NCBI GenBank assembly: GCA_977020255.1
Contig: CDROCS010002367.1
Span: 1-64,000 of the forward strand
Reading direction: 5' to 3'
Length of the DNA: 64,000 nt
Source of the DNA: Obrimoposthia wandeli
Taxonomy: Eukaryota
Part shown: piece after piece, positions 1,126 through 24,149 of the stretch
Layout: every line of letters begins with the position of its first letter
How positions within the stretch are numbered: position 1 is the stretch's first letter
The notes under the pieces: model-generated
Told to the model about the DNA's origin: nothing
The model's input: only the letters and a program-made list of their open reading frames with translations
Database searches by the model: none
Position numbers and translations under genes: made by a program

Positions 1126-1133
1126 TATTAAAG

Positions 1134-1151
1134 TGGTGCCCCGAGTGAGGA
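1134..1151 (+). promoter_or_regulatory. Primer binding site, complementary to the 3' end of elongator tRNA-Met
   Basis: TGGTGCCCCGAGTGAGGA is the reverse complement of ...TCCTCACTCGGGGCACCA, matching the animal elongator tRNA-Met 3' end as recalled (one position differs from the human form); 8 nt after the LTR end. Confidence 0.75.
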
Positions 1152-2571: not shown

Positions 2572-4246
2572 ATGGCTCAACAAGGAGCTCCACCAGATAT
2601 TAATGCAGGAAATAATGTAGGTGAAATGAATGCCGAGCAGTTGGAACAAGCTTTAAATGCGACGTTGAGACCCAATTTTTCAGGATCATTGCAGATTACA
2701 AAGTTTAAAGGAGATGAGGAAAGTATTTGTGACTTCCTCGCAGAATATTCGAGTTGTGCAGATGTTCAAGGATGGAACGATAAAGAAAAATGTGTCAGAG
2801 TACAGGCACATTTAACCGGATTAGCACTTGAAGTGTATAAACATTTGACAGAAGCAGAACGCATAGATTGGCCAACGTTGGAAAATGCTTTTATTGGAAA
2901 ATTGGTATTAGGAGACTTAGCCAAAGTAAATAAGCGACTCATGAGAGAACGGAAACAGAAACATGATGAAGGCGTGAATGAATACGCGTATGTTTTGAGA
3001 ACCTTGGCCGCAAGAGCGTACCCATAAATCAGGACGGTAATCCTGTAGCTCCAGAAGCACAAGCAGCGGAAAATGACCGGAACCAAAATGAAATGGCAGA
3101 GGTTTTGTTAGATATATTTAGAGGAGGATTGAAAAGGGACATTAAAGTGTTATTAGCAGTATCGGATACAAATGATTTTGATAACGCCGTGCGAAAGGCG
3201 AGAGAGATTGAGAAAAATATAAAAAATAACGCAGCATTGGCAATTTACGCAATGACTGCAGGTGACGACGATAAGACAAAGGTCTTCGTGAATAAAACAG
3301 AACCGAGTAATTTTCAGAATCGAAATTATGGACAAAATAAGTTTGAAAAAGTAGATGAATCTAGTAACGGAAATAGAGATAATTTCCGAAGTAGGAATCG
3401 AGATGATTCGAGAGGTAGAAATAATAGTGAGTCTTGGAACAGGAATCGAGATGATTCAAGAGGTAGAAATAGTAATGATTCGTGGAATAGAAATAGAGAT
3501 GATTCCAGGAATAGATTTAATAGAGATAATTCAGGAAATCGCCAACCTTGGAGAGGAGACGATAGGAATTATAACCCAAACAGAGGAGAGCGAAGTGACT
3601 CTGGATTTGAAAATAATACAGGAAGTAGTGACGGAAGATTCAATAATCGAGGAAGCGGTTTTAAATCGAATTTCCGAAGAAATGATTTTAGAGGACGATA
3701 TGATAACAGACAGAATAGTCGTCGAGTACAGTTCGAAGATGAACAGAATAAGATAGATATTCGAGGGAGAATAATGTGTTACACGTGTAAACAAATGGGT
3801 CACTATTCGAGAGATTGTACGAGAAGTAAAGAGTTCGGAACTAACAGATTTGGAAATAATAATTTCGGTAATACTAATCTTGGAAATAATTATAGAGGAT
3901 ATAATTCACCCCGCCATGGAATAGAGGTGGTGGATATACTCCACAGCCATGGAGACCGAATAATCAGTATACAGATAGACAACAGTCACCAGGTAGATAC
4001 AATAACTATGCAGACAGACAGCAAGGAGCTGAGAGATACAATAATTATGTAGGACAGCAAGGAGCTGAGAGATATAATAATTCCGGTAGATATAATAATA
4101 ATAATGTTGACAAGACAAATAGTCGCGAGAGTTCGCCGAAACCGAAAGGAAATTTTAGTTATGTAAACGATGACAGCGATAGGAATCGCGAGACCGAACT
4201 TCGACGCGAAATAGATTTTGAAGATAGTGATAGTAAATTTGAACGA
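2572..4246 (+). CDS. gag: Gag: capsid domain, Arg/Asn/Gly-rich repeats, CCHC zinc knuckle (frame breaks at ~3025 and ~3910)
   Basis: ATG in good context at 2572; Ty3-like CA (KFKGDEESICDFL...WNDKEK...LTGLALEVY...W..L...F; FRGGL); CYTCKQMGHYSRDC at 3777-3818; after a -1 correction at ~3910 the frame runs directly into ORF 4247. Confidence 0.9.
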
Positions 4247-5955
4247 ATGTTGGGAATAATTAAAGATTCACCACATACAAAGATGGCGAATTCATCTACG
4301 TTGTCGAAACAAGAAAAAAGTCTACACTCGAGAGAAGAGATGAATGATTTAATGAACCAAATACTAGAAGCGTATGAGACACCAATAGAGAAAACGTGTA
4401 ACGCACAACCTATGACTGATCACATAGAAGCAGCAAGAAATGCTACGAGTATGGAAAATGTAGAAAAGATAATTAGTGAAGCTAAGGAGACGTTGAATCA
4501 ACCGTTAGATGAAACAAGTGAAGCTCCAGAAGTTTTGGCCAAATTGCAAACAATTAAAGTACACAGATTGGAAGAAGTGCGAGCAGAATTGGTTAAACAT
4601 AGTCATGATAACTTGGGTTACAAAGAAGTACCACGAGGATTATTGAAAAGATATGGTCGCTACGTACAGAGATCAAACCAAAAAGGAACGATGAAAATTT
4701 TGCTTCGATTAATTTCCGGACAGATTATACATGAAAAACTTAACGTGTATCAGACAATGAAAACGATTCGAAAAAAGTTGGCAGAAAAACTTGAAATTGA
4801 TGGAATGAATATGTTGTTCCATTATAAAGGAAGATCACTAGATGATGAGGACGTACCAGTCGAGTGTGGATATCCGATAGGAAACGAATTAGAGGAAAAA
4901 ATTGATGTCATCACTGTAGGACGTCAAGAGTTAGTAGATAATGAAGGATTAACAGAGATATTAAACTCTGCGTTAGAAATGATAAAAACGCCTATAGAAA
5001 TTTTAGACAGTTCAAGCGAAAGCGGAGATAATGATGTAGCTGAAGCTTGGAACAAGACATTCACACCAGAACCGTACGTAGCTGAATTACAAGACGTGAA
5101 TTTAGAAAATGAGTTGACGACTCCAGTGGTCGAAGTACCACCAGAACCAGATATAATTCAAATCAGACAAGATGAAGTCACGGATACAGCTAACCAAGTG
5201 AGACAAAACGAAAACGTAACCCAACTAGTAGGAGAAGACGAAATCTCCGAGATTGTAGATTTGGATTCACCAATTTGGCATGCTGCATACAGAGATAGAC
5301 AAGCAGAGCAGATGATGCGACAAAACGAAGAGATTGGCCATGAAGAAGGACCAAGTCAAGAGATACAGTATAATGGTGAACCGTATGATCCAGGCGAGAA
5401 TCAAACTGAGTATCAGTATTTTCGAAGAGGACCTGGAAGACCTAGAAAAGACGGGAGTATATTACGAAATGTTCTAACTGCACCACAGACTGATGAGGAG
5501 AGACATCTAAGCATTGGACAGTTAGCAGCGTCATTAGAGCAATATAGTACAGGAGCGGAATGAAGATATCAGAGGCGATATGAATTGGGAAGTTGCAAGT
5601 TGTACCGATCTACTTACGTGAATTCTAAGGCAAGTGAATCCAAAGTTGTTCAAAATGTACAAAAGATGAAACAACCGATATAACAGACAATTTGACTAAA
5701 GCAGTTAGATCACAAATGTCTGCAGTAAAGAGAATGACTGCGAATCATGTATACCATGCATCAATAGATAGATTTTATGACGGTGAAGTTTTAGCGAGAT
5801 TATGTGGAAACCAGACTACAAATAAAAAGTTAATTACAGCGATCACATATCTATGTTTCCAATTGACGGAACGAACGAGCCAACCTCACGAAGTCAAACA
5901 AGGAATAAATGAAGCGATGTATTTGATCGAGAATGTATTAGCAGAAACGAATTGA
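4247..5955 (+). CDS. Gag C-terminal extension with SUMO/ubiquitin-like domain (4691-4923), acidic linker and AT-hook (5423-5449)
   Basis: MKILLRLISGQII...LFHYKGRSLDDEDVP...EKIDVI resembles Ub/SUMO beta-grasp sequences; RRGPGRPRK is an AT-hook core; in-frame TGA at 5561-63 and a -1 break at ~5662. Confidence 0.6.
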
Positions 5956-6097
5956 CGAAAACGGAGGTTGGGCAAAATTAAGTGACTACGCTAAAACCAT
6001 TGTGGAAATGAACGAAGACGATGACGAACAATGTCATGAGAATAGTCAAAGAGAAAATAAACAATACTGTCCGAAAGAAAGAAATAATCAACCAAAT

Positions 6098-7970
6098 ATG
6101 TCCACAACAATGATGATGATGATGTTAGTAATGTTCATGGGAATGCAACAGGCATCAGGATTGATAGCATACGACTGTAGCATACCAAAGATGGGACAAA
6201 AGTATTCACTGCTTGACAGCGAAGACTGTCCAGAATCACAACCGTCAAAATTAGAAGTTAAAGGTGTTGAAAACTACTTTGTGTATCAGGATGTTGATAA
6301 AGTACAAGTAGAAGTGAAGAATGTGCAATCCATTCAAGTTATCACGAATTCTATTGTGGCCATAAAAGTTTTATGTCGGAAATCACACCTACCACACCGT
6401 ACAAGGCACATAAGGTTTTGCCGAGAGATTGCGAAGACGCATTTCGAACGGGAACGATAGAGGTAGACAAGAATTACAAACCTGAAGTAAAAATTGGAGT
6501 GAGACGATACGAAACAGTCACGAGAGTCGGACAACGATGGGCTGATGGATCTTGTGACGGAGAAACAAAAAACGTGCGTGGAACCAAAGTATCTGAGTTA
6601 GTAATGGACGTAACTTACAAAATCGACTTAAAAACATGGACCGCCAATTTTGATAAAAAGACACAACTAATGATGAAGTATCCAGAATGTAAAATGACAG
6701 ATACATCTTGTTTTACAGGCGAATCCACAATTGTGTATCAAGTGAATCCGAAGCAATGCTCTTTAGTATTTTTGAAAGAGATTAGTTTTAATAAAATAAA
6801 AGGATTCCTGTATAATAAAGATGGAGAAGGGTTCCTGTATAATAAAGTTGGAAAAGGATTGCTAAATGAAACAAGACCAATTCCAATGACAAAGACACCT
6901 ACACTGTTAATGGCAACATCAATAGAAGAAGGATTGATATTTATTAAAAAGAGAAACAAAGCGCGATGCGGAATGACTGTTAGTACTACAAACTATCCAG
7001 GAATAGTTTTGTCCAAAGAAGCAATAGCATTGGCAGAAACCAAGCTAAAACCAAAAGATATGCAGCTACACACGTATTTTAATAATAAAATTGATTTCTA
7101 TTATCATAAAGGATTGATGCAAATGGAACAGTTATATCGGATGATGATCGAAAGAGATTGCCAGCTAAACAAAGAGATCGTAAGAACAAAGTTAGCATTA
7201 GCTATTACGAATCCAGACATGGTAGCACCATTATTACCCTTGGATGAAGGAGTATTTGCTAAAACCATGGGAGAAGTATTGTATACTTACAAGTGTAATA
7301 AAGTAGAGGTACAGTTGAGAAAAACAGATCGATGTACGAGTGAATTAGCAGTAACGTATAATTTAAAAGATCTTTTTGTTGAACCAATCACGAGAATGTT
7401 ACTTCCAAAAGACACTCCAACTAAAGAAATCAGCTGCTCTAATATAATGGCACCTGAATATCAGATGACGAATGATCTATGGATAACGTTACCTGATCGG
7501 AAGCCAACGAAAACCCCAGCGATGATAAGAATGACGAATCTTAAAGGTAAAATGAAATTCCAAGCGGTGGAAAATATGGAGAACGCAGGATTGTACAATG
7601 AAAAAGATTTAAAAGCGGCGTGGAACGAAATAATGTTTCCAGTAAAAAGAGCCAGAGTACTTACGGAGATGGTACATCGAGCATTACCGCCAGGAGCTAG
7701 ATATGCGAATTTCGATATGTTATTATCGCCAAGTCATTTCAAGGAAGCAGCACATCAGACACTTAGAAAGATGTGGGGGAAATTCCTTGTTTTAGGACAA
7801 TTATTTTCGGGTATCATAGGTATTTATGTTATAATTAAATTTGTGCAGGTAATTATAGCCCAGGTGTTGTCTACGTATAGTTTATACAGGATAACCGGAA
7901 TCACCTGGCAACTTATAATTGGATGTTTTCCATTTTTAGCAAAATATCTAATGCACCATCATCACGAGAA
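6098..7970 (+). CDS. env: Envelope glycoprotein, chuvirus-like (class III, gB-like); frame break at ~6318
   Basis: Signal peptide MMMMMLVMFMGMQQASG then LIAYDC; after correction ECAIH...FYCGH; YFNNKIDF..., RDCQL..., GEVLYTYKC.KVEV, C..EL.V, LFVEPITRML, AGLY...IMFP, and two C-terminal hydrophobic segments all follow the chuvirus-like glycoprotein pattern. Confidence 0.85.
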
Positions 7971-8313
7971 CGAGTTAAGAGCCCTCAAGAAGGAACAACA
8001 CCAAACGAGAACCATGATGCGAGAACCAAGAAACTATCGAGACGACAACGACGACGATAATGATAGTCCAGGAGTATATGCAAAGATACCAGGAAAACCA
8101 AAGATTCCGTTACCAGACAAGGAAGAAGTGGCGTTAAACATATATCCAATGAAGGAACTAAAGGAGGAGAAGGAAAAGTTCAAGAGAGGCATCTTAATGG
8201 TAAGATGGCCTAAAGTGAGCTACAGTGAAATTCCACAAGCAGAGGAAAAAGACAAAAAAGATAATTCCAGAAGAATTCTGAAATCTAGGATATCAAATGA
8301 GAATCCAAATGCT

Positions 8314-8612
8314 CCACCACAAGTAGCAGTAACATTGAACGGAAGAGAATATCTTGCCGAGGTTGATACCGGATCTGCAGTATCAGTACTGAGTAAAGAA
8401 ATCTTGTCATCAAAAGAATTAAGAGAAGTATGTCCTAGAAAACAGACATTTGTTAACGTGAATGGTACAGATGTAGTGTCGGAAGGAACACTGAAATGTT
8501 CATTGAATATCGATGGAAGAGCATTGCAGTTAAATGCTAGAATATTCACAGATTGCGGTAGTCCAGTCATGATTGGGATGGACGTAATACGAATGTTTGA
8601 AGGAATAATTAT
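8314..8612 (+). CDS. Retropepsin-like aspartic protease 1, in frame with env
   Basis: LAEVDTGSAVSVL (DTG 8365-8373) and IGMDVI motif within ORF 6373-8931. Confidence 0.9.
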
Positions 8613-8844
8613 ACTACCAAACAACAAGAGTTATAAGAATGACAGTTCAGTGAGAGAGATAAAAATGTTGAGAGGACCCATAGTCGAAAAGGAAAAATGC
8701 ACTACGTTCCGTATGGGAGGTTCGTACCCAGACAGAAAACAGGAAGCGCTAGTAAAGTCGATACTTCACTACAAAAACGTAAACCTCGGACCACAAGAGA
8801 TGACGAGGAGAAAAATAACATATGTGAATCTGTCAGAAAGGGAT

Positions 8845-9840
8845 CCCATGAGATTCGAGAGAAAGAGACGAAATATATTAGAACAGTACTATTCAAAGAA
8901 ATGGCACGTAAAATGGCAAGATCAGGTTTAGAAATGTTAAACGCGACAAGTAGTTATGGTCATGAGGAAGTAGTACGATGCGTATGGTGTAGAGTAAAGT
9001 TTAGAGAGTGGGAAAAGAATGAGAAACCCAATGAGACGTCATAAAGAGATGCACCAAATTGTCCATTTCTTTTGAAACTAAAAACTTCAAACGTACCAGA
9101 AATCCAAACGGGAAAAGCACCCGATTTCGATTACAGTGACGGGATTCCAAAAGGAGAATCAGCTCTAATAACAGGTAGAGTAATAACGAATAGTCGAATT
9201 GAAGATATATTCGAAGTTATGCGAGAAGTGAACGAATGTGACGAACAGTATCGAGAAATAACCTTCGAAGACCCAAGACTTAAAAATTGGCAAAAAGGAC
9301 TTTTGCTATAAAAAAGGATGGTAAAGACGTAATTAAATGCCACAAGTGTAAAAAGAACGAATTATCGACAGATATACTCTTGAGCTACCTAAGAAAATTT
9401 TACATCATGAATTTTGCGAATTTTGTATTTTTAAAAACAAAATAAAGCAAAAAGAACAGAAAACCGAATGTATAATCGAATACCAAATCACACGGAAAGA
9501 GATTTTGGCTCAACAAGACACACCGGTAGTGTCATTCGTGAGAAGGTTATATCCAAAAGAAGCAGAAAGAATCAGAGAATTGGTAGAATTAAAAATAAAA
9601 ACTACGCGAAACGGATACGGATCGATTTTTGAATTACTGCGAGATAAAGATGACAGTACAATTGAAACAAAAGAGAAAGAGTACATAAATGAACTAGAAT
9701 ACGTACTAGAAGATCCGGAATGCGCAGTTTGCATGGTCAACAAAATAGAAGTTGCCTTTCTACCATGCGGACATGTAAGAACATGTCGGAGATGTGCGAA
9801 TGAAATGGTATCATGTCCAATTTGTCGAAGAATAATAGAT
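8845..9840 (+). CDS. Inhibitor-of-apoptosis (IAP) module: BIR, degenerate BIR, UBA-like, RING
   Basis: VRCVWC...W...P..(RH)KRDAPNCPF restores C-x2-C-x16-H-x6-C after a +1/-1 pair at ~9036-9046; second BIR-like D.IKCHKC...HHEFCEF at ~9260-9430; IRELVELKIKTTRNGYGSIFELL resembles the IAP UBA; CAVCM...FLPCGH..TC..CA.....CPICR at 9721-9828 is an IAP-type RING. Confidence 0.88.
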
Positions 9841-9949
9841 CGACAAGTGAGAAACATTAGATTTCACTATCCAAACAAAGGAAGTGGACTGACAGAGTGT
9901 AATAATTCGATAAATACAATATACCATATGGGAAACATAAATGGAGCAC

Positions 9950-12900
9950 AGCGACCAGCAGCTATCATTAGAGTAAATAATTTAAGAGTAAAAGCCTTAA
10001 TTGATACAGGTGCTGTAGCTTCGATAGTAAGTGAAGACTGTTTGACAGAGGAACAGAAACGAACAATGGCAGAACCAGATGAATTCTTGGTATCGGTCAA
10101 TGGAGACCCTGTAAAAGTGACAGGAATATTACCATGTACATTTATAATTGGACGTAATACGATCACTATACCAGTTAGAATCATGAAAGAATGTCCTGAA
10201 CCTACAATTTTAGGAATGGATGTATTATCACAACTCAAAGGGATAAGTATTGATTTACAAGATCCAAGATTGAAGGATAGCACATCAAACAGACAAATAA
10301 ACCAAATTGATGTAATTATAGAGAATCCTATAAAAATCGGTAAAAGATCACAATTTCTCATTCAAGGTCACACATTATCAGAAGATAAAGGACCAGTTGT
10401 GTTCGAACCATCACGAGATTTCATAGAGAAATACGAATTACCAGTTGTGAGTACAGTATGCCTGATCGAAAACCACAAAATACCAGTTAGACTGATGAAT
10501 ACAACCAACAATGACATTCTATTATACAGAGGAATGAGGTTGGGAAAGATAGCACAGATGGAGAATTCCACTGTATGCGCTATGAAACTCGATAAAGATA
10601 CGAATGATTACGAAGAAATAGTAATCCAATCAGAAAGACTGACAACTAGAGAAAAGAAACAATTACTTGATCTAATACATAAATTTCCGAAAGTAATTGC
10701 AAAAAATCCATATGACATAGGAGAAACACCTGTCATAAAACATACAATACCACTGACAGAAGACAAAGTAGTCAGAAGAAGACCATATCGAGTACCATTA
10801 CAATTACAAGATGAAGTAAAAAGTCAGATCGAAGATATGTCTAAAACAGGAGTAATTAGACCGAGTTTTCGCCATTCTCAGCACCTGTGGTGCTGGTAAA
10901 AAAGAAGGATGGGAAAATGAGATTCTGTATAGATTTCAGAGAACTGAACAAGATCACAAGAAAAGATGTGTATCCATTACCTAGAATCGAAGAGATGCTC
11001 GATAAATTGGGTAATTCAGATTATTTTACGACATTAGATTTGCAAAGTGGGTACTGGCAAATCGAGATAGAGGAAGAGGATAAACACAAAACAGCCTTTT
11101 CCTGCGGAGATGGATTATACGAATGCGAAAAGATGCCATTCGGACTGACAGGAGCTCCAGCAACATTTCAGCGTTGCATGAATTTTGTACTCGCATCGTG
11201 TGCAAACACGATGGTTTATATTGATGACATAATAATATTTTCGAAAACGTTCGAAGAACATTTAAAAAATCTGGAAGTTGTATTTAAAAGACTGGAAAAC
11301 GCTAAATTAAAAGTTAAACCTACAAAATGCGAATGGGCTAAAGAGCGAGTAACATTTTTAGGACATATAGTATCGAAAGAAGGCATTCGACCGGATCCAG
11401 CAAAGATCGAGAAAGTAAAAGCGCATTTAGCGCCAAAGACTGTTAAGGAGATACAGAGTTTTTTAGGTCTTGCGAATTATTATAGACGATTTGTTGAACA
11501 TTTTTCAGATATAGCAACACCATTGAGAAAGTTGACGAGGAAAGATGAGAAGTTCATATGGGAGAAGAAGCCCAACAAGCGTTCGAGCATTTAAAAGAAA
11601 GACTGATAAAAGCACCGATATTAGCGTTTCCAGATATAAACCGACAATTCATACTCATGACAGATGCAAGTAACTATGCTGTAGGAGCAGTATTGGGACA
11701 AGAGGATGACGAAGGAAGAGAACACGTCATCGCGTATGCGAGTAGAGGATTAAACAGAGCCGAAAGAGGATACTCTGTTATCGAAAAGGAATGTCTAGCC
11801 ATAGTGTATTCATGTAGACAGTACAGACACTATTTGCTAGGACAAAAAGTATTCCTGTATACAGATCACAAACCACTACAGTTCTTATATAAACATAGAG
11901 ATGAGATGAGTAGATTAAACAGATGGTTTCTAAAATTGGCCGAATTCGATCTAGAAATCCGTTATAGAACCGGAAAGTCGAACGGCAACGCAGATTGTTT
12001 GTCGAGATTGACAAATGTAGACGAGAAAGGAAACATAATTCCAGAAGAAGATGAAACCAATGACCAAAAGGAGAAGCAAATCTACTGACGATTTTGCTAA
12101 AAACGGGTAAAATAGACAAAGAAATCATCAAAGAACAGAAAGAAGATGAAGAGCTGAGTCTAATCAAAGAATTGTTGGTGAAAGGAGATCTAAACGATGA
12201 AATGACGAAAAAATACTCGATAAAAGAAGGAATCTTGTATATTGTCAATAATGTCGGAAAGATAGTAGTAGTAATTCCGAAGTCATTGAAAACAGCAGTG
12301 ATGATCCAGTATCACGACGGAACACTAGGAGGACATCTGTCAGGGCGAAAGACAATAGCCAGAATCAAAGAGAAGTACCATTGGGATGGTATGGAAGACG
12401 ACATAAAACAATGGTGTAAACAATGTAAAGTATGTTTAACCAGAAAAGACACCGGAACTCGTACTAAAGTTCCACTGAAACCAATGCCAGTTCCTTTGGC
12501 ACCAATGGAATTCACAGCGATGGATATATTGGGACCATTGAGAGAATCAAGTAAAGGAAACAAGTACGTCATAGTATTTACAGACTTTATGACGAGATGG
12601 GTAGAAGCATATCCCATGCAGAACCAGAAAGCTGAAACAATAGCGCAGATTTTAGTGGAAGAGATAATATTTCGATACGGAGTGCCTAGAAAGTTGTTAA
12701 CGGATCAAGGTAAGAACTTCACTGGAGAAGTCATAAAAGCAGTATCGAAGATATTCGGAATCATGAAGTTACAAACTTCACCATATCACCCACAGACAGA
12801 TGGTCTGGTAGAAAGGTTTAATAAAACTTTATGTATGATGGTACAATCCTATTGCTCAGACAAGCAAGAGGATTGGGATAAATATTTACCTTCATGTTTA

Positions 12901-13400
12901 TATGCTTACAGGAATTCAGTTCGAGAGGCGACGGGTCACACACCATTCTATCTGATGTATCTCAGACAGAACAATATGCCGATGGATCTGGAGTGGACCG
13001 AGCCAACATCTCAGTACCTAGAAACTGAACAATACATTGTCGTCATGAAGGAAAGATTACAAGATGCTTGGACCAAAGCCGGATTGAAGTTGAAATTCAA
13101 TCAAGAAGGTTACAAGGAACAATACGACAAAAAAGCAAAACCACATGAATTTAGAGTCGGAAATCAAGTGATGATATTTTATCCAGTCATCGAACCAGGT
13201 CTATCGTTTAAACTTCATAGACCATACAAAGGACCATACAAGGTGATCCAGACAACCTCAACAAATTTGAAAGTAATCAACGAAGAGAATCGGAACAAGG
13301 AACCGATGATTGTACATGCAAATCGATGCAAATTAGTACCAAATAAAGATAATGCGTCACGATATGAGTTAAGATCACAGAAATCGAAATCGAATACCAA
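9950..13400 (+). CDS. pol: Pol: aspartic protease 2, reverse transcriptase, RNase H, integrase (breaks at ~10868, ~11560, ~12082)
   Basis: ALIDTGA (DTG 10003); RRRPYRVP; VLVKKKDG.MRFCIDFRELN; YIDD 11217-11228; TDASNYAVGAVL and TDHKPL; IN HHCC, AMDILGP, TDQG, GLVERFN, GPY. Confidence 0.97.
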
Positions 13401-13521
13401 TACCATTAAACTTACACGAATGGTAAGTGATCGGAACTACATAAACATGATGACGAGTGGTAGCGAGAAAAAACCAGCGAGAATTGGTATGCTCAGAATG
13501 AAGTACCAAGAGGAAAAGGAA

Positions 13522-14495
13522 GTAATCCGACACATCGCACCACAAGAGATATTAGAAGAAGACGAAGAGATAATAGTCGTTTTCGAAAAAACACAACCAA
13601 CAGATGTAGCTAAAGAAGTCATTGTGAAAGATGCACTAACAAACGAATTTCTGTGCGAACTTAGAGTGTCATACTATGACGGAAATACACTAGTCGCAGC
13701 GCTTTATCAAAATTCCAATGTGTTTACGACTGAGAAAGTGATAATCGAAATCACATTGACACCAAACATAGTTGCATGGCAGAACTATGACAGTACTGAA
13801 GCAGGACTAGCCAGTCAGGAAGAAAAAGAACCGGCCGGTGGTCACATACTGCATGGTACACCAAAAAGACTCAAACAAGAATACCACGATGTAATAATGG
13901 TATTACGTAATTCACATGGGAAAAGAGATATCATGAGAGTCCATTTAATCGACGCTGACACTGAAAAGATAATTTGTCAGATGGACACCAAATACTTTGA
14001 TGGAAAGACAATTGTATGTTGTATACCAGAATCTCACCGGTTAGACACAGATCAAACGGAAGTATCTGTAAGGTTGAGCGTAATAGAAGGATTCCATTCG
14101 CCAACCCATCCGGAAGTGACTAACAATAAAATCATCAAAGCAACGGCAGAGTTACGCATTGACAGCGGATACCGAAAGTGGGAAGCTAAAATAAAAAACC
14201 ACAAAGAATCAATATGATCCGAGAACAAGTGACCAACTCAATCCAGCCAAAATATCATGCTGAAATAGTATCATCCGCGCCAAGTGTGATCACATCGATA
14301 AACGACGAAATTATAATTTTACTAAAAAATCGATGGCCGTCATCAACCGAAATACGAGTAAATTTAATTAATTATGCGAAAACACCGATATCTAAGCTGA
14401 ATGTTACCTATTTTGATGGATTGTCCATCATGGGTAAATTGGAAACAATTGTCATGTGCTATGGAGCACAGTTCCAAGTTGAGATACTTAAAGAT
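13522..14495 (+). CDS. Three tandem ~80-aa Ig-like (IPT/TIG-like) repeats after integrase
   Basis: Repeats at ~13522, ~13843 and ~14262 share I..xP....(D/E)(I/V)I(V/M/I), a V...D/N segment and Y(Y/F)DG.(T/S)(L/I). The repetition is clear; the IPT fold is inferred. Confidence 0.55.
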
Positions 14496-14951
14496 AGCGT
14501 AATACCATATCCGATTCACAAATACGAAGGGGAAATCAATCCAATTATTCTAACCCCTTCATTAATTTCAGTTCAGACAGACATACCAGAATACCCTTCG
14601 AGCGAGTCTAGTGAAGACAGCGAACCAGAAAGTAACGATACAGAATCAACAGAATCTGAAGATAACATAATAGAGCGATTCGGAAGAACCATGGAGGTTG
14701 AATTCGCTAAAGAGAGCAGAAAAAGACAAAACATAGAATTCGTGAAACAGAATATACAAGAAAGACGAATTAAATCAGCAGAAGAGACCGAGTCGGAAGA
14801 AGACTCAACAAAGGAACAGACACCAGAGACAAAGATGAATATCTCTCCAGCAATACGAATGCTGAGAGGAAAGAAACTGGCGAAACTATCCAACATCGAC
14901 GAACAGATAGAGAAGAGATTAGAAAGACTAAAACTTGAAGAGTCAGAATTA

Positions 14952-15380
14952 ATGCCACCAATGAGTGAGATCATTCCAGGTAAGTTATACCTCGGAAATG
15001 TGGAGGATGCAACAGATGAAAAGAAACTGTTGGAACAAGGGATAACATACGTGATCAACGTTACAATGAATCACAAATCACAATATCAGACAATCAGAGC
15101 TATGACATTAAGAGTAAAAGACTCAATGGACGCTAATCTTCTCGAATGGTTCGTAGAAACAAACGAAATACTTCACAGAGAACTCCGGAACCAAGGAAAA
15201 GTATTGGTACATTGTCAGAAAGGAATTTCTCGATCAGCAACTCTAGTATTAGCATACCTAATAAAGACTAGACGAATGCAGGTACTAGAAGCGCTAAAAT
15301 ACCTACAGGAGAGGAGAAGTATTGCAAACCCAAATCTTAATTTTTTGGGACAGTTGGCAAATTACCAACTTCTGTTGCAA
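14952..15380 (+). CDS. Dual-specificity (MKP/VH1-like) protein phosphatase with intact catalytic motif
   Basis: EIIPGKLYLG...GITYVINVT...VKD...VLVHCQKGISRSATLVLAYL...ANPNLNFLGQL; HCxxGxSRS at 15210-15236. Confidence 0.95.
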
Positions 15381-15477
15381 GAACAAAGACGGATGGATGA
15401 CATTCCTGAGGATCCAAAGGAAAAGAATTTCCTCCAAGCATTATCATTGACCGGGTTATTCTTAGCCGGAGTCGACA

Positions 15478-15900
15478 AAATTACACAGATAATGCCAAAA
15501 GTATTTTTATGTCATCCAGGAGATATAGACACTGCTGGATTAAAGTTCCACAGTATCAACCGAGTAATCAAAATTGTTGAAGTCGGAAACGAGATAATTA
15601 GTCTGTGTCAAAATACTGAAGACGACACCACTCGATACATACATGCTTCCAATCGAGAAATAAACGATGCACAACAACATCTGACGAAATTGACTCAAAC
15701 CATCCAAGCCGAAGTCACAGAAGGAAACGGCGTTCTGATATATCAGAAAAAAGGTACAATGTTAGCGCCAACCATAGGTGTATCCTTGTTGGTAGAGTAC
15801 CATGGTCACACGCCAGAAGAAGCGATGGTCTACATCAAACAGAATAGACCAGATACGGAATTCAAACCGTTACTCGTTCGAGAAATAGAGAAATACACCG
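15478..15900 (+). CDS. Second, catalytically dead DSP-like domain (pseudophosphatase)
   Basis: ITQIMPKVFL...INRVIKI...GNGVLIYQKKGTMLAPTIGVSLL...EEAMVYIKQNRP parallels DSP1 but lacks the catalytic Cys and Arg. Confidence 0.75.
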
Positions 15901-15944
15901 AAAAGAGGAAGCAACAACGAGAAACAAATTAAGCTACAACAACA

Positions 15945-18632
15945 GTGCCCAGCTTTCAATACCAAAGATTGCTAGCGATAGGCTTGTTAAGTTGTCTAAT
16001 GCCGATAACGGGAGCACAGGAGATAGGCTCCAACCACGGAAATAGTTCCTGGTTCAACGAAATCCACAATTACACCATACAGTACCATACGCCGGCACTG
16101 ATGATGCTATTAGTGTTGTTAGGACTAATTGATGTATGGATCATCCGAAAATGTCTTCGATCCGTGAGAACCGACAGTAAAAGATTTCAGTTTGTAAAGA
16201 TGAAAAGACCAAATGGACCAACGAACAAAGTGCTTGTGTATCTAGACGAAAGGATCGAAGACAACATAGTAAATGAAGCGATATTTTACCCACAAAACAG
16301 AATACTGAATCAATTTCGAATAGATTACGAAGCTGACCGACAGCGCACACTTGACCGAATATCAACAACATTCGCCGGATGCAAGCGAAGAAAACTAGTT
16401 GTAAAGGAAATACAAAAAGATGCTGATACAAAAGGACCAACGTATATATTCGACGGCGATGTCATCAAAACACGTGAGTATGGAAGTAAGAGAGTGATAA
16501 TTGAAACAATGGAAGGACATAAAACATGCTTGTCCGCCAAAAATGGATTCGGAAAGTTGACGATACAAGGTAAACCGGTACAGTTGATTATCGGAAGAAA
16601 TGGAATCGAGGAGATGTTAAAACAACGACAGACAACAAAACGATCCAGTCAGAAACAGATATCTCTCAAACGATTGATAATTAAAACCCTTTGCAAAAGG
16701 TCAGTCAAGGCCCTGTGCACCGTTGCACAAGGATTGATTTATGGAGTAGTAATTGGATTGGTACTGCAAGCCATGCCAACCAGTAAAGCCGAATTGATGA
16801 CACTATCCGAATATAATTTACATTTGAGAAATCTAGACAACACCCTAGAAATAATCAAGACATCCCACAGTAAAGCCGTGATGATCATGTGTGTAAAAGG
16901 ATGTCCAGGACGAATGTGTATAGTCCCAGCGACCGAAATGATAACACTTAATGGACATTATGGAATTAGTGTTGTCACATGTGAAGACTACATATTTGGA
17001 CAAACTAAAATAGTACTTCTCAGTGACATGTCCAACCAAAGTGCACACAAATTTAAAATATTAACCATCAAGAGTAAAGGAATACCAGCAGTACGTTACG
17101 GTATTCTAGAATTGGTTAATCCAATACTCGCACTGATCATTGGATTTATAATATTAATATTACTCATCTTGTTTTGTTGTACAAAGATAGAGTTGAGATC
17201 AAAAAAGAAACGTCATGATCTCGCAAGACGAACAGGTCAAATGAACTTACAAAAATTCAACACAATTATACCAAGACCACCATTTCTAGATGAACCAGCA
17301 CCAGAGTACCAGCCAACGATATATGAACATATCGAGGAAAGAACGTACTATATGAGTAATTTGACTTGTTTCATTGAAGTTCCTGAGTTTAGGAATCGAA
17401 CGATCATAGGAATCATGCTGATCATACAAATCACCACTACCAAGGCTAGTTATGAGATCATGATCAGTAAATGGAGACAAGACGTAATACGGGCAGTATA
17501 CATAGAAATCCCCCTTCTAAAAACAAATCACGTAGTAGACATTCATCTACAGATGTCAGCAACCGACAATATCGATCAGAAATTGTATGTCATCCGACAG
17601 GTCAGAATAAAAATCGACCAAAATACACCCGATTACAATTTAATATTATTGTATCATGAAAGAGTGTTATATCTACGGATAACAATATCAAAGAGGAAGC
17701 GGATTATCCAAAGTATCCGAACAAAGTCATTAATATTGCCTAGAGATGAGCGCATCTGGAAAATTGTCGACAGGATTATTATCACAGGTAGACGACGTAA
17801 AGCCGTATGGAATTCCGTTAGGATATTTTTCAGATTGCTAGAAACCGACAGAGTAACAGTAATGTGTTCCAACCCAGATGGCGGAATCAGATTCGAAATC
17901 CAAAGCCAAATGTTAGTACCACATTTTAACACAGAATGTCTGTGTAATCGAATTTCCAGTAATACTACAGAGACCTCGACCATAATCATGATAATAACAG
18001 GTGAAATATTCTACATAACTCTAAGATACCAGAACCGTCGATTTCGTAGATCCGGTATAAGTATCAAACCCAGGAAAATCATTCCCAAAAGGCCAATCCT
18101 AGTCAGAAAGAAGGCAAAAGTAAACGAAAGTAAACGTCATTCCAAAAAACCGACAGTGATCAGAACAAAGACAGAAGCGAAAGAAAAAGAGCTCAATCCC
18201 AGAAACCAAAGTACAATTATTAAGAGGACAAGAGTGAGGGGAACGATCCCACTAGATCCCAAACATCATTTCCAATCCAAAATAATAATACCTGTTCCAT
18301 CAGAAACAAAACACCCAAATCCCCGAATTTTTAGAAAATCGGACATAATACATGGAAACCGATCAAAACCCATGGAAATGTCATTCGAACCGACAAACAA
18401 CAAAATGAAGTATGATTATAAATCATCAGACAGCGGAATAACAGCGGTCAATGCCCTAATTGGAATGGCCGTAGTGTCAACAGCAGTGGTTCTATTGACA
18501 ATCGTGTGCGTGAAAGGCAGTCAAGTATGCCCAAGAATACGACGAAAATGCGAAGGATTGCGATGCTGTGACACACCCACCATGGAGGAAGTGGAATTGC
18601 GACCCTTACCTCCGCCTCCAATCAAGATATGA
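15945..18632 (+). CDS. Unknown multi-membrane-segment protein (signal-peptide / TM / tail units); in frame with the DSP ORF across TAA 15930-32
   Basis: 895-codon open frame with several hydrophobic stretches, signal-like ends (PITGA, PTSKA, TTTKA), Tyr motifs and a Cys- and Pro-rich C-terminal tail. Confidence 0.7.
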   Translation: MPSFQYQRLLAIGLLSCLMPITGAQEIGSNHGNSSWFNEIHNYTIQYHTPALMMLLVLLGLIDVWIIRKCLRSVRTDSKRFQFVKMKRPNGPTNKVLVYLDERIEDNIVNEAIFYPQNRILNQFRIDYEADRQRTLDRISTTFAGCKRRKLVVKEIQKDADTKGPTYIFDGDVIKTREYGSKRVIIETMEGHKTCLSAKNGFGKLTIQGKPVQLIIGRNGIEEMLKQRQTTKRSSQKQISLKRLIIKTLCKRSVKALCTVAQGLIYGVVIGLVLQAMPTSKAELMTLSEYNLHLRNLDNTLEIIKTSHSKAVMIMCVKGCPGRMCIVPATEMITLNGHYGISVVTCEDYIFGQTKIVLLSDMSNQSAHKFKILTIKSKGIPAVRYGILELVNPILALIIGFIILILLILFCCTKIELRSKKKRHDLARRTGQMNLQKFNTIIPRPPFLDEPAPEYQPTIYEHIEERTYYMSNLTCFIEVPEFRNRTIIGIMLIIQITTTKASYEIMISKWRQDVIRAVYIEIPLLKTNHVVDIHLQMSATDNIDQKLYVIRQVRIKIDQNTPDYNLILLYHERVLYLRITISKRKRIIQSIRTKSLILPRDERIWKIVDRIIITGRRRKAVWNSVRIFFRLLETDRVTVMCSNPDGGIRFEIQSQMLVPHFNTECLCNRISSNTTETSTIIMIITGEIFYITLRYQNRRFRRSGISIKPRKIIPKRPILVRKKAKVNESKRHSKKPTVIRTKTEAKEKELNPRNQSTIIKRTRVRGTIPLDPKHHFQSKIIIPVPSETKHPNPRIFRKSDIIHGNRSKPMEMSFEPTNNKMKYDYKSSDSGITAVNALIGMAVVSTAVVLLTIVCVKGSQVCPRIRRKCEGLRCCDTPTMEEVELRPLPPPPIKI

Positions 18633-18755
18633 TAAGTCAGATGAGGTTGTAGATAAATTAGTGTGTGAAATATGTAGAAATGTCTAGAAGCGATTGTACA
18701 AATAGTAGAAATATATAAAACTCATGTAGAAATTAATCATCATCATGTATTTAGA

Positions 18756-19055
18756 ATGTCCGAAGAATGCCCAATATGTTTGGAAGATCTAACCGAACGA
18801 AGAACAAGACCCGAAACCTGCAACCATTTACACCACGAGGAATGTTTATCGACATGGATCAGAACTTATGGACAGTTCGGACATCCAACATACCCTTGTT
18901 GCCCTGTATGCAGAAGACAATTCGCAAGATTCATCATGTTAGAACCCAACCAAGAGGATGTATATGTACAGGTGGTATTCTGTTGGAAGAATTTCGGAGA
19001 GTGTTGGTGTTATTACTGTTTGTCAGAACGACAAAATCCGACCACTTTTGTGTAA
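18756..19055 (+). CDS. RING-H2 protein 1 with extra C-x6-C-x-C-x2-C motif
   Basis: CPIC...CNHLHHEECLSTW...CPVCR; CWKNFGECWCYYC. Confidence 0.88.
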   Translation: MSEECPICLEDLTERRTRPETCNHLHHEECLSTWIRTYGQFGHPTYPCCPVCRRQFARFIMLEPNQEDVYVQVVFCWKNFGECWCYYCLSERQNPTTFV

Positions 19056-19115
19056 ACATCACACAACCACCAGTCCTCAATCGAGCCCAAATTCAACATC
19101 AACCCTCTCACAGTA

Positions 19116-19421
19116 ATGTCTGGAGAATGTTCCATCTGCTACGAGAGCATTGTGGACTTCTACACCAAGCCCAACAACTGCGACCACCTCTTCCACGTCG
19201 AATGCCTCGAGACGTGGATCCCCATTGCCAACAGCAACAATCCCCTCGACTTCCCAACCTGCCCGATGTGCAGAGCGACCTTCTCAGTACACTACGTGTA
19301 CAACCAGGACAGCCTCCAAGCAGTGGTACCCATAGTACACTGCTGGAAAACCATCTGCGATTGCTGGTGCTCGTTCTGCGTGGAGGAGCGAAGCACAGGC
19401 CAGCCCAACTCCCAACAATAA
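19116..19421 (+). CDS. RING-H2 protein 2 with extra C-x6-C-x-C-x2-C motif
   Basis: CSIC...CDHLFHVECLETW...CPMCR; CWKTICDCWCSFC. Confidence 0.9.
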   Translation: MSGECSICYESIVDFYTKPNNCDHLFHVECLETWIPIANSNNPLDFPTCPMCRATFSVHYVYNQDSLQAVVPIVHCWKTICDCWCSFCVEERSTGQPNSQQ

Positions 19422-19760
19422 TCGAAGGTAACTTTCTGACTTGAACGTGACATCATGAACTACCCTGTGTATCGCATACCGCGATAAATTAGCTACCATA
19501 ATTGTAATCATAATTATATAATCTTGTGAACTGTAAATTGACCATTACCATTTTTATGTATGATGTTTAACTGAAAATTGTAATTATTATACTGAAATTC
19601 TAAAAGACAATTTTTATGCTTAGTGTGAATGCGTAAACATGCCTAAAATCGGAACAAAACTCGGTAGGATTAAATAACTAAGGATTCGTTTTGAAATAAA
19701 ATTTAAATTAACGATGAGAACGGTGAACCCCAAATTGAAAGGAGTTATTTTCTTGTGCAG

Positions 19761-20258
19761 ATGAAGTGTACCGTCTGCCTCGAGAAAATTTGGACGGCAT
19801 CGGCATCCCCTGTCGGCTGCCGTCACAAATTCCACGAATCCTGCCTATATACTTGGGCCCGACTTCGACCCGAAGGACACGTCAATTGTCCATTGTGCCG
19901 TACTCCCTTCGCGGAATGGACACTGCAGTGTCGAGGGCGCCACAAGGGCACCCATTCGCTCACCAGCTGTATTGGTGGCGAGCACTGCCATTGCCCCAAT
20001 TGTATCGCGCGCCGTCGCGATGCAAAACTCGCCCTCCGCGAGAAATATCGGTCAACCCGCGACCCTCGCTCATGGCAGCGTGGCCGTCAAATATGGCTCG
20101 GAAATCGCGGAGTACACGGGCGGTACACGACCATTTTTCACCCGAGCCAACATCTCACCATGCACCAGCAGATGATACTGTACAATGGCGGCCCACCATC
20201 GTATCCAGAACTACCACTGGAGCAGGTCTTGCTGTTCCTGAAGGACAGGAACGGTTGA
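19761..20258 (+). CDS. RING-H2 protein 3 with extra C-x5-C-x-C-x2-C motif and basic tail
   Basis: ATG at 19761; CTVC...CRHKFHESCLYTW...CPLCR; CIGGEHCHCPNC. Confidence 0.88.
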   Translation: MKCTVCLEKIWTASASPVGCRHKFHESCLYTWARLRPEGHVNCPLCRTPFAEWTLQCRGRHKGTHSLTSCIGGEHCHCPNCIARRRDAKLALREKYRSTRDPRSWQRGRQIWLGNRGVHGRYTTIFHPSQHLTMHQQMILYNGGPPSYPELPLEQVLLFLKDRNG

Positions 20259-21069
20259 CATATCCCTGACAATCTTGTTGACATATCCCTGACAATCACC
20301 CTTAATCTTTTCTTGTGTGTAAATTTTTAGTTGTGATAAGTAATAGTGTATGGTTTGAGACTTGCTCCAAATTACACATTATGATTTCCACAAAAAACCG
20401 GGATTTTGAAAATTTTGTTTTGGGCTTGTTTGATGAGTTGAATGATTGATTTTGTAGGGATGAACCTAAAATCAACAGCCAGAGGCTAGTATAAGTAAAA
20501 TCGATACGTTCCGGGGACGTAACTTTTTTGGAACCCCCGAGGTATGTTAGGTTTAAGAATTAAGAAATTAAAATAATTTAGTCGATTAAATACTAAAATA
20601 AAAATCCTTGAAAGCAAGGTTGAAAATTAAATTAAATATTAATTTTAGATTCAAAATTGAAATTAGTGGAAGTTAGGATAAAAATTAGGAGGACCACGAA
20701 GGTCGTGTATAGTGTAGGATATATAAGGTTAGATTAATTAACCCAAAAGTGCAACAAAGGCACATTAATTAAAGCAAAAAGAAAAAGGGAACAATTTCGA
20801 ACGTCAATCAAGGTAAGCACATTTTCGTGCAGTTAAATTGGAGTACTTAAATTAATTTTTCAGCTGCCGCCAAAACTCCAGTTGAAACAGCTGTCGACAT
20901 TGCTGATTGACAGCCAAGGTTGAAGAAATCGACTATAAAAGTCGTCGACCAAAAAACAAACAGACACAACAGGAAAAATCAATACTTCAGATCGACTGAA
21001 GAAATCGACCACATATTGGTAAGTGGTGATTTGGTGAAATTTAGATTAAACCATTTTAGATCACAAATT

Positions 21070-21540
21070 GTTAAAGGAATACGAATCTATTGTTAAAGGA
21101 ATACGAATCTATTGTTAAAGGAATACGAATCTATTGTTAAAGGAATACGAATCTATTGTTAAAGGAATACGAATCTATTGTTAAAGGAATACGAATCTAT
21201 TGTAAAAGGAACACGAATCTATTGTTAAAAGAATACAAATCTGTTGTTTAAAGTTAAAAAGAATACAAATCTGTGGCTTAAAGGAATACAAATCTATTGT
21301 TAAAGGAATACGAATCTATTGTTAAAGGAATACGAATCTATTGTAAAAGGAACACGAATCTATTGTTAAAAGAATACAAATCTGTTGTTTAAAGTTAAAA
21401 AGAATACAAATCTGTGGCTTAAAGGAATACAAATCTATTGTTAAAGGAATACGAATCTATTGTTAAAGGAATACACATCTATTGTTAAAAGAATACAAAT
21501 CTGTAGCTTAAAGTTAAAAGAATATCAATCTATTGCTTAA
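21070..21540 (+). repeat. 22-bp tandem array GTTAAAGGAATACGAATCTATT with a ~140-bp higher-order duplication, inside the inferred 3' LTR
   Basis: 22-bp period seen directly; variant block repeated at ~21202 and ~21342. Confidence 0.9.
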
Positions 21541-21636
21541 AAGAAGCCGATCAGCTCAATAATCCCAACTAGACCCAGTACCGGATTGACGCAGTCGCAG
21601 CTAGTCGCAGCATATAGGTAAGAACACCGACTAAAG

Positions 21637-22075
21637 CATTCATTGCCCCTAGTTGGCAATTAGGATACATTCATTGCCCCTTGTTGGTAATTCGAAATTG
21701 TAATATATTTTAACCATATTCATTGTCCCTAGCTGACAATTAGGATTGCTGTCTCTTTAACCAAATCATTGTCCCTAGTTGACAATTAGGATTGTCCATT
21801 TTTATTCATTGTCCCCAGTTGACAATTAGGAATTGTACGAGTTTTTTCCCGTAAGATTCATTGTCCCTAGCTGACAATTCGGTTCACTCATTGTCCCTAG
21901 TTGACAATTCGGAACAAATACTCATTGTCCCTAGTTGACAATTCGGTCCACTCATTGTCCCTAGTTGACAATTCGGAACCAACACTCATTGTCCTAGTTG
22001 ACAATTCGGAGTAAGTTTTCATTGTCATCGTTGACAATTAGGTTGTTTGGGAATCATTGTCCACAGTGGACAATT
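21637..22075 (+). repeat. Palindromic CATTGTCCCTAGTTGACAATT array in the 3' LTR (~12 units)
   Basis: Same unit as 65-652 but fewer copies. Confidence 0.9.
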
Positions 22076-24149
22076 CGTGGTTAAATACTCAACAGATAGA
22101 GTTACGGACTCAAGAAACTTTATCCACACATAAGAAGTTGAGTCGAAGAAATTTAAGAGAGTTGCGTTATAGATTAACCAACCTAGGAAGAAGAATAACC
22201 CTAAAATCTCGATCACCGAACGTAAAATCGATACGTGGTTCATCCCCACTTCTTGTAGAGACTTACAGAAGTCTTAGGAATTTTACCATACTTTTTAGAA
22301 ATACGTACATAAACGTATTGTTGTGTTTAGTTACGTGAATTACCAATAAACAATTTCCTACATTAGAACAAGTTGTTTTTGCACCCTTCAGAATAAGAGA
22401 CATCAAATCAAATACCTTCAGATAGAACAAGAGATAGGCAACCATAACACGACCAACTTTAAGACCTGCTTCTAATCGAACTCACGTTGGGGCCCTCCGC
22501 AAATAAGAGGATCTGTACCAAGTTTCGTATAGAAACCCCAACATATGCACTAATTCTCTTTTTTATGTTTCTTTCAGTTCTATTAATATTATTATTAAAG
22601 ATAATAAAAAGAAAACAAATACAGAATGATACAGCAACAGGAAGATGACTACCCTAAACGAATTGAATTTTGCAGACTCAATTTTAATCATAGAAATTGG
22701 ATAAAAAATAATATTCAATGTAGAAACTGTTATAACCGTTATTATGATTGAATAGAAAAGGAACACCAATTCATAGAAAACCCTCCAAAATTTAATTTCA
22801 TAACAAATATGTGGACAGAATTCGAGATATTGTTATTATTACTCTGTCTACTATGCCTTATATTCATATTTACGAACAAGATGAAGCTTAAGAGCATCGA
22901 TTTGTGGCAGTTTGAGAAATGCTGGATACTGAATTGATAGATCACAGGATTGCCATGTCAGGTCCTATAGAATGACCTCTTCATAATAAGTTTTTCAGCG
23001 CAAAATGAAATATATGAAGAATTCCTTCTAAATATTTCCATTGTCTTGGTAAAACGAGCTATTAATACGATTGACAAGCGTTGTGGAATGAGTGTATAAT
23101 TATAATGGTGGTCAACTTGCATATTAGCACTTAAAATCATAGTATCTTCATTAAAATCCTCGGTCAAAATGGACAGCAACAAAACAGTTTTCTTAGACAA
23201 ATTTATACATCGACAAAAATTCTCACTAAAACCATGGATAATAGCTAGACATTCACACACAGGCAACCACACACACACATTTTAAAGAGCATATTTAACT
23301 TCTTGACATCCTGACCTTCATTTGGCATACTCAGCAATTAGTTACCAACAGTACAAGTTATTGCATTTTGATAAATATATCCACATATCTTCGGGCTTTG
23401 CCTGAACAGTGTCACATCTTAGTAAACATAAAATTTCCATGTGAGACTGTTACACAATAAAGAAAGGATAGCAACATACGAAACCCTACGGACGATAATG
23501 TTATATCACATGTGCTACGAAAGGTAAACAATCAGATCATTAATTTAGGACTGGCGTTTAACCTTCTTGAAGATTATCCCAAAAGAAAATTTTATATATC
23601 ATTATATGAAACTTAAAAATTATTGTTTATAAATTATTGAATCTATTCTTCTTTGAATAAATTCAAGATTTATTCCTGTTTATTTTATCGACCCTTATCT
23701 GTAATCATTCACAAATGTTTAGGTAAAAATGGGAATAACAGTAACAATTCACATTTTCCCAAAAATCCCTATTTAAAGTATAATATAAAATTGCATCATT
23801 ATTAAACATTTGTTGGGGTTTTCTTTTAGAACTTTAAAATCCTCGTATGTATGCTCCCAACGTCAGTTCTGTAGCGATAGGGGTTACAGATGAATGTGAC
23901 CTACCTGTTCTAGTCTCTGAAGGTTTTCGTTATTTGTTAAAGAGTTGTGCACAGAATAACGTAAAATTCCCTAAAGTTATTGTTGCTATGTGTGTAGCAG
24001 TCCTCTGATACGCAGTCTTCTAATACACAGTTCTCTGATACGCAGTCCTCTAATACGCAGTCATCAAATATCCTCCAACAATCTCCATTGAATCTCCAAG
24101 TTCTAATTACTAGTTCGGTCTCGTTCTAAATTATTGTGATATGAAATGA

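Follow-up and report, generated by a model that had tools for sequence, protein, structure and literature searches.

Three RING-H2 genes at the 3′ end of a giant Burro-like retrotransposon: candidate accessory ubiquitin ligases, one with a SUMO-interacting-type tail in most lineages

In a 64,000-nucleotide stretch of DNA from Obrimoposthia wandeli (assembly GCA_977020255.1, contig CDROCS010002367.1, positions 1 to 64,000; hereafter the window), three short ORFs with RING-H2 domains follow one another at the 3′ end of a retrotransposon. Are these genes, here called A, B and C, accessory functions that the element maintains, or are they passengers? The original prediction, made from the letters of the sequence, described them as a family of small E3 ligases with a shared zinc-binding substrate module, possibly degrading restriction or silencing factors. 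The alternative set against it was a host gene cluster that had been captured once and was decaying neutrally. We examined the element, its copies and the three ORFs with these two accounts in mind.

The element and its 3′ genes

Window positions 1–22545 form a single LTR retroelement of ∼23 kb, with an internal region of ∼19.4 kb and two LTRs of ∼2 kb (Table 1). The 5′ and 3′ LTRs differ by 20 mismatches and 24 gaps over 935 aligned bases, and the primer-binding site presumably matches the 3′ end of a tRNA. The polyprotein region carries, in order, gag, a CCHC knuckle, a ubiquitin-like domain (E 0.009), a weak Bcl-2-like stretch, a Monjiviricetes-type fusion glycoprotein (env; PF24664, E 5e-79) that lies between gag and pol and is followed in frame by a protease, then a BIR domain (21.7 bits against a cut-off of 22.9, in a piece broken by the frame), a RING-HC domain, a second protease, reverse transcriptase, RNase H and an integrase with a long C-terminal extension. 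In other copies the polyprotein frame is open for up to 5301 aa. The Bcl-2-like stretch, scored on the matching stretch of locus L066, is far below the Pfam cut-off (E 0.071) and had no PDB sequence match.

Burro elements and the Burro IAP are already known. The planarian elements Burro1/GYPSM1 and Burro2-4 are described as exceeding 20 kb, reaching very high copy numbers and having one long polyprotein frame, with a CCHC-knuckle gag, a ubiquitin/SUMO-like domain, a weak Bcl-2-like stretch, an env of mononegavirus type that continues the reading frame from gag into pol, and BIR plus RING domains (PMC6431247). The element studied here resembles them in these features, the Bcl-2-like stretch being a tentative parallel. 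Its domain order, compared with this description, places it as a Burro-like, env-bearing giant Gypsy LTR retrotransposon. There was no Pfam match in the element to MATH, ankyrin or dUTPase-like domains; the lack of a MATH or ankyrin match and the LTR length of ∼2 kb may set it apart from Burro. A MATH domain in ORF1 is reported not to be universal among Burro-like elements (PMC6431247). The available text of that source mentions neither a phosphatase ORF nor a 3′ RING-H2 trio, either of which may appear in the primary papers (Grohme 2018, Lee 2026).

Table 1. Positions of the features of the element in the window.
Feature	Position	Strand	Basis
5′ LTR, truncated at the start of the window, with CCCAACATA at its end	1..1127	+	direct repeat with 21594-22545
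Primer-binding site TGGTGCCCC..., just 3′ of the 5′ LTR	1134..1151	+	sequence
Polyprotein region, in several frame pieces in the window copy	2341..14217	+	Pfam
ORF of 572 aa for a dual-specificity phosphatase, its start sharing ATGA with the integrase stop	14214..15932	+	Pfam DSPc, E 7e-40
877-aa ORF with hydrophobic segments, no family match	15999..18632	+	ORF read, Pfam
AG as candidate 3′ splice acceptor, with one base between it and the ORF A ATG	18753..18754	+	YAG in 70/73 intact-frame copies, 11/13 non-redundant
ORF A, 99 aa: RING-H2, predicted hairpin, C-x6-C-x-C-x2-C	18756..19055	+	ORF read, Pfam, dN/dS
AG as candidate 3′ splice acceptor, with two bases between it and the ORF B ATG	19112..19113	+	CAG in 73/75 copies, 11/13 non-redundant
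ORF B, 101 aa: RING-H2, beta-hairpin (58-72), C-x6-C-x-C-x2-C	19116..19421	+	ORF read, Pfam, AlphaFold2 model, dN/dS
Candidate 3′ splice acceptor AG, immediately before the ORF C ATG	19759..19760	+	CAG-ATG in 73/73 copies
ORF C, short allele of 165 aa: RING-H2, C-x5-C-x-C-x2-C, a run of basic residues and the conserved LPLEQVxxFL box; no terminal IDLT	19761..20258	+	
3′ LTR, ∼2.0 kb, TATGTT...AACATA	20543..22545	+	direct repeat; start boundary alike in 34 other loci

The original description of three uninterrupted C3H2C3 ORFs, each followed by C-x5/6-C-x-C-x2-C and together forming a cluster before the LTR, was borne out, with the 3′ LTR starting downstream of ORF C. A fourth RING had been assigned to an IAP; an IAP-type RING was indeed found (zf-C3HC4_3, E 1.8e-9), but it belongs to the polyprotein region, where a protease domain follows it immediately. 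The BIR-RING module is flanked by two aspartic-protease-like domains (8250–8600, DTGS; 9950–10250, DTGA). Two SIM-like hydrophobic-acidic stretches were seen directly after the ubiquitin-like domain (window 4990–5260 region).

A shared four-cysteine motif after the RING

All three ORFs scored above the Pfam zf-RING_2 cut-off of 27.3 bits (A 37.5, B 36.7 and C 34.9), and in each the C3H2C3 ligands are present with RING spacing. A, B and C all retain these ligands, as well as the Trp of the helix and the P-x-C-R signature, which is usual in E2-binding RINGs. A gap of ∼23 residues separates the RING from the four-Cys motif in each ORF. When the 47 post-RING residues of each ORF were shuffled 20,000 times, the motif arose by chance in 0.02%, 0.15% and 0.19% of cases, and it did not occur in 81,996 residues of six-frame translation from window positions 23001–64000. 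Across 38 rows of A, B and C, the only columns after the RING conserved at ≥90% were R53, F56, the four cysteines and R92. The four cysteines are kept in 82–98% of older copies, as are the RING ligands, and many other residues are kept likewise. We rejected the idea that ORF C has a larger His/Cys site, because C57, H61, H65 and H77 are kept in 65, 0, 48 and 0% of 30 older copies.

An AlphaFold2 model of ORF B from the 38 natural rows had a mean pLDDT of 83.5, with a confident RING (82–96 over residues 1–60) and beta-hairpin and values of 60–70 for the four-Cys part and a helix; an earlier fold prediction from four sequences had a pLDDT of 45. In a Foldseek search of the viral models in BFVD the best named rows were the baculovirus proteins PE38 (E 9e-5), IE2 and CG30, and numerous ICP0 orthologues of herpesviruses ranked lower; these matches are to the common RING fold, with E values only near 1e-4. 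Residues 1–70 matched ordinary RING and U-box chains in a PDB fold search (Z 6–7), and the PDB sequence matches include Arkadia-family RING-H2 domains. The nearest Atlas clusters were mostly small viral RING proteins, which we treat as a lead only.

A word-index protein search found no homologue for ORF B or for the 38-row alignment. A full HMMER search gave 4808 matches at E ≤0.001, and the four-Cys motif was present in none of the best 150. The post-RING parts matched no Pfam family and had no Atlas match at 0.9, and PHROGs and NCBIfam gave no useful match. The four-Cys motif would most likely bind an additional zinc ion, either to complete the small fold or to support a binding surface. Its more specific role as a substrate module is putative; the motif lies in the low-confidence part of the model and had no homologue in the databases searched.

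A conserved YAG stands before the start codon of each of the three ORFs (Table 1), and there is no such YAG before the starts of the gag, phosphatase and 877-aa ORFs. The 3′ LTR contains TATAAAA (20934), a candidate donor G/GTAAGT (21018/21019) and AATAAA (22345), with the donor and TATA region alignable in two loci only. Three alternative 3′ splice acceptors, one per ORF, would be the simplest reading of the conserved YAG and are likely. On the simplest reading, their donor would be either the LTR candidate or a spliced leader added in trans; spliced-leader trans-splicing occurs in flatworms. A, B and C would then probably be made as separate small proteins from spliced subgenomic RNAs. Four sequencing runs, all from one sample, covered the stretch evenly in a DNA-like manner, with no splice joint among the rows listed. 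At locus L053 a deletion fuses part of the 877-aa ORF to ORF A, and at locus L104 the A and B frames are continuous, with no stop between them.

Copies, selection and descent

ORF B had at least 150 matches that were 100% identical (150 of 150 scored), and the long allele of ORF C, described below, had at least 150 that were 98–100% identical (150 of 150 scored). Older subfamilies, recovered with a degenerate pattern and a divergent query, keep the A-B-C order at ∼60–90% protein identity. Sister families were sought with the env profile, and the same family was found in all 12 loci examined.

Selection was measured between the window and the oldest group by pairwise Nei-Gojobori estimates, from which half the within-group distance was subtracted, with a codon bootstrap. 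The net dN/dS values were 0.32 for A (bootstrap 0.15–0.61; 25 of 30 loci usable), 0.28 for B (0.14–0.54; 30 of 30) and 0.32 for C (0.16–0.64; 13 of 30). In-frame stops were present in 16 of 25 old copies of A, 23 of 30 of B and 10 of 13 of C; that many old copies are broken is expected after insertion, and such stops push the dN/dS estimates up, not down. With all upper bootstrap limits at 0.54–0.64, the comparison of copies that had been proposed as a check on the original prediction shows that A, B and C diverged between subfamilies under purifying selection. Among 29 young copies chosen on ORF C (∼58 synonymous and 220–230 replacement sites), 16 variants in ORF B were synonymous and 3 were replacements (from 23 copies, after 6 with broken frames had been set aside), and ORF A had 7 and 10 (27 kept, 2 dropped), a weaker constraint on A in these copies.

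Two questions of descent bear on how the cluster is read: whether the three ORFs are one family, and whether they came from the host. Protein identity is 37% between A and B and 29% between A and C. The score for post-RING similarity between A and B was reached by none of 2000 shuffles, which points strongly to paralogy and upholds this part of the claim of three paralogues. For C the case is weaker, its similarity to A and B being reached by 51 and 238 of 2000 shuffles and its profile–profile score by 2 of 100 column shuffles, although C too is likely to be a paralogue. One could instead take the four-Cys motif as purely structural or a product of chance, with C acquired separately and converging on A and B, and cite this marginal similarity together with a quick, mostly unresolved RING tree that sets C apart without support. 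We think this improbable: C shares with A and B the distance between RING and motif, the C-x-C-x2-C-x3-R ending and the acceptor-ATG layout, and a single clade of all three was not rejected (p-AU 0.73), the constrained tree scoring higher. As for the host, intronless RING-H2 genes in tandem arrays, a tree test that did not reject their grouping with the element RINGs (p-AU 0.68) and the many broken old copies could all be accommodated by a cluster that was captured once, carried passively and left to decay. That account is nevertheless very improbable in our view. The dN/dS values of ∼0.3 between subfamilies are well below 1 for all three ORFs, and purifying divergence of this kind means that they are not a once-captured, decaying cluster; gene order, acceptors and the four-Cys motif are also kept at ∼60% protein identity. 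The host RING ORFs score only 17–35 bits, and the motif was found in none of 23 of them, read from the best 30 of 150 loci listed (intronless ORFs only, so that intron-split genes would escape).

For the RINGs of the element we judge a cellular source, such as a TOPORS/PHRF1-like host protein, to be as likely as a viral one. The intronless host family is large, with proteins of 300–335 aa in which a helical part separates the N-terminal RING-H2 from a RING-like Cys/His cluster at the C-terminus (loci L155–L180, e.g. C736, C6761 and C1222; the array on C289 has a period of ∼3.28 kb). It looks like an expanded family of immune-type ligases.

ORF C alleles and a proposed function

ORF C occurs in two allele classes that are ∼62% identical, in elements otherwise 98–99% alike. 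The allele in the window is of the short class, and the long alleles encode 175–178 aa; among 30 loci chosen on ORF B, 22 had the short class and 8 the longer. Copies with the long allele differ from the window by 0.1–2.0% over positions 18700–19699, by 24–44% over 19800–20299 and by 4–9% over 20400–20699. This mosaic means that ORF C was exchanged between lineages or that the A-B block swept through several C backgrounds. ORF C is a cassette that is exchangeable between lineages, and its exchange by recombination fits a gene facing changing host targets. Between the short and long alleles dN was 0.30 and dS 1.10 (dN/dS 0.27). No sign of positive selection on ORF C was seen, dN/dS being 0.08–0.28 in every part, values that are averages from which single sites could escape.

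Most ORF C lineages, the oldest included, end in (T/I/V)IDLT, a motif of the SUMO-interacting type (SIM). Of the 66 C frames extending as far as the conserved LEQV box, 44 had the ending (T/I)IDLT-x-x-N. This count includes 28 loci that had been selected by their long allele; for the loci selected by ORF B the figure was 7 of 23. IDLT-bearing ORFs fall into six lineages that are 55–84% identical, with synonymous changes in the motif codons, and only 15 of the 83 columns before the motif are invariant. In the oldest group, [IV]DLT stands directly before the stop in 13 of the 27 loci with a C match (two being the same place), 380–480 bases past the C start, where it follows the same helix box, often with acidic residues in front; four of these are in the frame of the C match, whereas the rest are in copies that are broken, with the frame shifted. 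[IV]DLT was absent from all of 150 other RING proteins and from all 23 host RING ORFs. SIMs are loose motifs (PMC12751080). TIDL is reported as the most critical SIM of the RING protein ORF61 of VZV (PMC3161977), and a VIDLT peptide has been used as a SIM competitor (PMC3526273).

No SIM-like pattern was found in A, B or the C of the window, so that a RING and a SIM-type sequence motif occur together in the long ORF C alleles and not in A, B or short C. The 30 loci selected by ORF B include 23 with a full-frame C ORF, and in 16 of these the SIM is likewise absent. It is therefore dispensable for recent spread.

We consider it probable that A, B and C are selected accessory E3 ligases acting on host proteins. 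Each would be a RING-H2 E3 ubiquitin ligase with the RING-plus-hairpin build of viral immediate-early ligases, the fold being predicted by the model and the activity inferred. The retained RING ligands, helix Trp and P-x-C-R signature, together with the purifying selection, are in line with the small E3 ligase family of the original prediction as far as sequence can speak for ligase activity. In the long form of ORF C, the SIM would bind SUMOylated host proteins and the RING would ubiquitinate them for removal, in the manner of ICP0 and ORF61; ICP0 is reported to have SUMO-targeted ligase activity (PMC3174244). That the long alleles encode a SUMO-targeted ligase seems to us an evenly balanced proposition, against which stand the single SIM, the looseness of such motifs and the wide spread of alleles that lack it. 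RING plus SIM need not mean degradation, since ORF61 disperses PML bodies without degrading PML (PMC3161977).

The likely targets of long ORF C would be factors that act on the element, either in SUMO-dependent chromatin silencing or as nuclear restriction factors; A and B, without a SIM, would have other targets. Silencing factors are favoured because SUMO is reported to be needed in Drosophila for H3K9me3 silencing guided by piRNAs (10.1101/533091) and in mammals for the silencing of ERVs (PMC10144533), and because Burro RNA rises on loss of the planarian nuclear PIWI (PMC8532177). Their identification as the targets is tentative. The original idea that restriction or silencing factors are degraded thus draws some support by another route, through the C-terminal SIM-type motif on the ORF C of most other lineages, which is a better candidate for the targeting part than the four-Cys motif. 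In its fullest form the proposal would be that an animal LTR retrotransposon encodes an ICP0-like SUMO-targeted ligase that strips SUMOylated piRNA/H3K9me3 factors, in a three-gene spliced cassette with an undescribed four-Cys zinc module, and that recombination trades SIM+ and SIM− alleles among lineages circulating together. We offer this combination as speculative.

The same proteins can be read as ligases or E2-binding decoys directed at cell-death or innate-immune signalling, which with the BIR-RING module, the Bcl-2-like stretch and the phosphatase would keep host cells alive. The element does carry a BIR, an IAP-type RING, a dual-specificity phosphatase and a weak Bcl-2-like stretch; the Burro1 IAP has been reported to protect stem cells (cited in PMC13465017), and of the four RING-H2 genes of WSSV one degrades a tumour suppressor and one is reported to sequester an E2 (PMC4093003). 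This reading leaves the terminal SIM-type motif of ORF C, kept across lineages, unexplained, and we hold it to be possible but doubtful; for A and B, alongside a SUMO-targeted C, it may well hold. Self-regulation is a further account, in which Gag or polyprotein products are ubiquitinated for budding, or SUMOylated integrase or Gag is cleared, and host silencing is not the target. It could draw on the ubiquitin-like domain of the polyprotein with the SIM-like stretches near it, and on the modification of retroviral proteins by ubiquitin and SUMO (PMC10144533), but the deep allelic exchange of ORF C beside a near-identical A-B block would better fit a host-facing gene, and we judge self-regulation unlikely.

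Several known systems resemble the SUMO-targeted ligase that we propose for long ORF C. ICP0 and ORF61 are RING-HC proteins of alphaherpesviruses, which are DNA viruses; they are several hundred residues long and have several SIMs, whereas ORF C is a RING-H2 protein of 165–178 aa from a retroelement, in which a single terminal motif is joined by the additional four-Cys motif; sequence homology between them is shown for the RING only. In RNF4 and Arkadia the SIMs lie N-terminal to the RING, and RNF4-type ligases have several, whereas ORF C has one, at its C-terminus. What is shared is, in the case of ICP0 and ORF61, an N-terminal RING with a hairpin, as in the Foldseek matches, and a distal SIM (PMC3161977), and the combination of RING and SIM in the case of the cellular ligases RNF4 and RNF111/Arkadia (PMC12751080). 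Baculoviruses (PE38, IE2 and CG30) and WSSV (WSSV199, 222, 249 and 403) likewise have several small RING E3 genes per genome beside IAP-type genes, and E3 activity is reported for such proteins (PMC4376880, PMC4093003). These viruses belong to a different class, the matches cover the RING region, and the four-Cys motif is present in none of the best 150 sequence matches.

In the open-access literature, with the main Burro papers and their supplements outside this scope, no account of these features came up: neither the three RING-H2 genes and their acceptors, nor the four-Cys module, nor an LTR element with a ligase that bears a SIM. To our knowledge, few animal transposons are known to encode a suppressor of silencing. 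If the proposal is true, a retroelement ligase acting on SUMO conjugates would be a direct counter-move to silencing and could help to explain the abundance of the family. Giant LTR elements would then also carry the same kind of accessory kit (an IAP, a phosphatase and several RING ligases) as large DNA viruses. The existence of natural alleles with and without the motif, in genes of 100–180 aa, makes the SUMO question directly testable.

Some minor features of the element were also recorded. Three beta-rich segments of ∼100 aa, judged alike by eye, lie at the C-terminus of the integrase (two) and the N-terminus of the phosphatase (one; window 13480–14217 and 14214–14550); they had no Pfam match or homologue, and the N-terminal domain of the phosphatase had none in the word-index protein search. 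The phosphatase ORF contains two DSP-like stretches, the second apparently without the catalytic Cys motif, and the overlap of its start with the integrase stop suggests termination-reinitiation. The 877-aa ORF has a long basic stretch and varies between copies more than the integrase or the phosphatase. Outside the element, window positions 56229–58237 hold a separate, ordinary Gypsy-like fragment, in which direct repeats of 161 bases enclose pieces of RNase H and integrase. Tandem arrays with units of ∼51, 49, 22 and 31 bases are present in the leader and LTR (1197–1943, 21027–21559 and 21630–22015), and the LTR interior past ∼20810 is polymorphic between copies.
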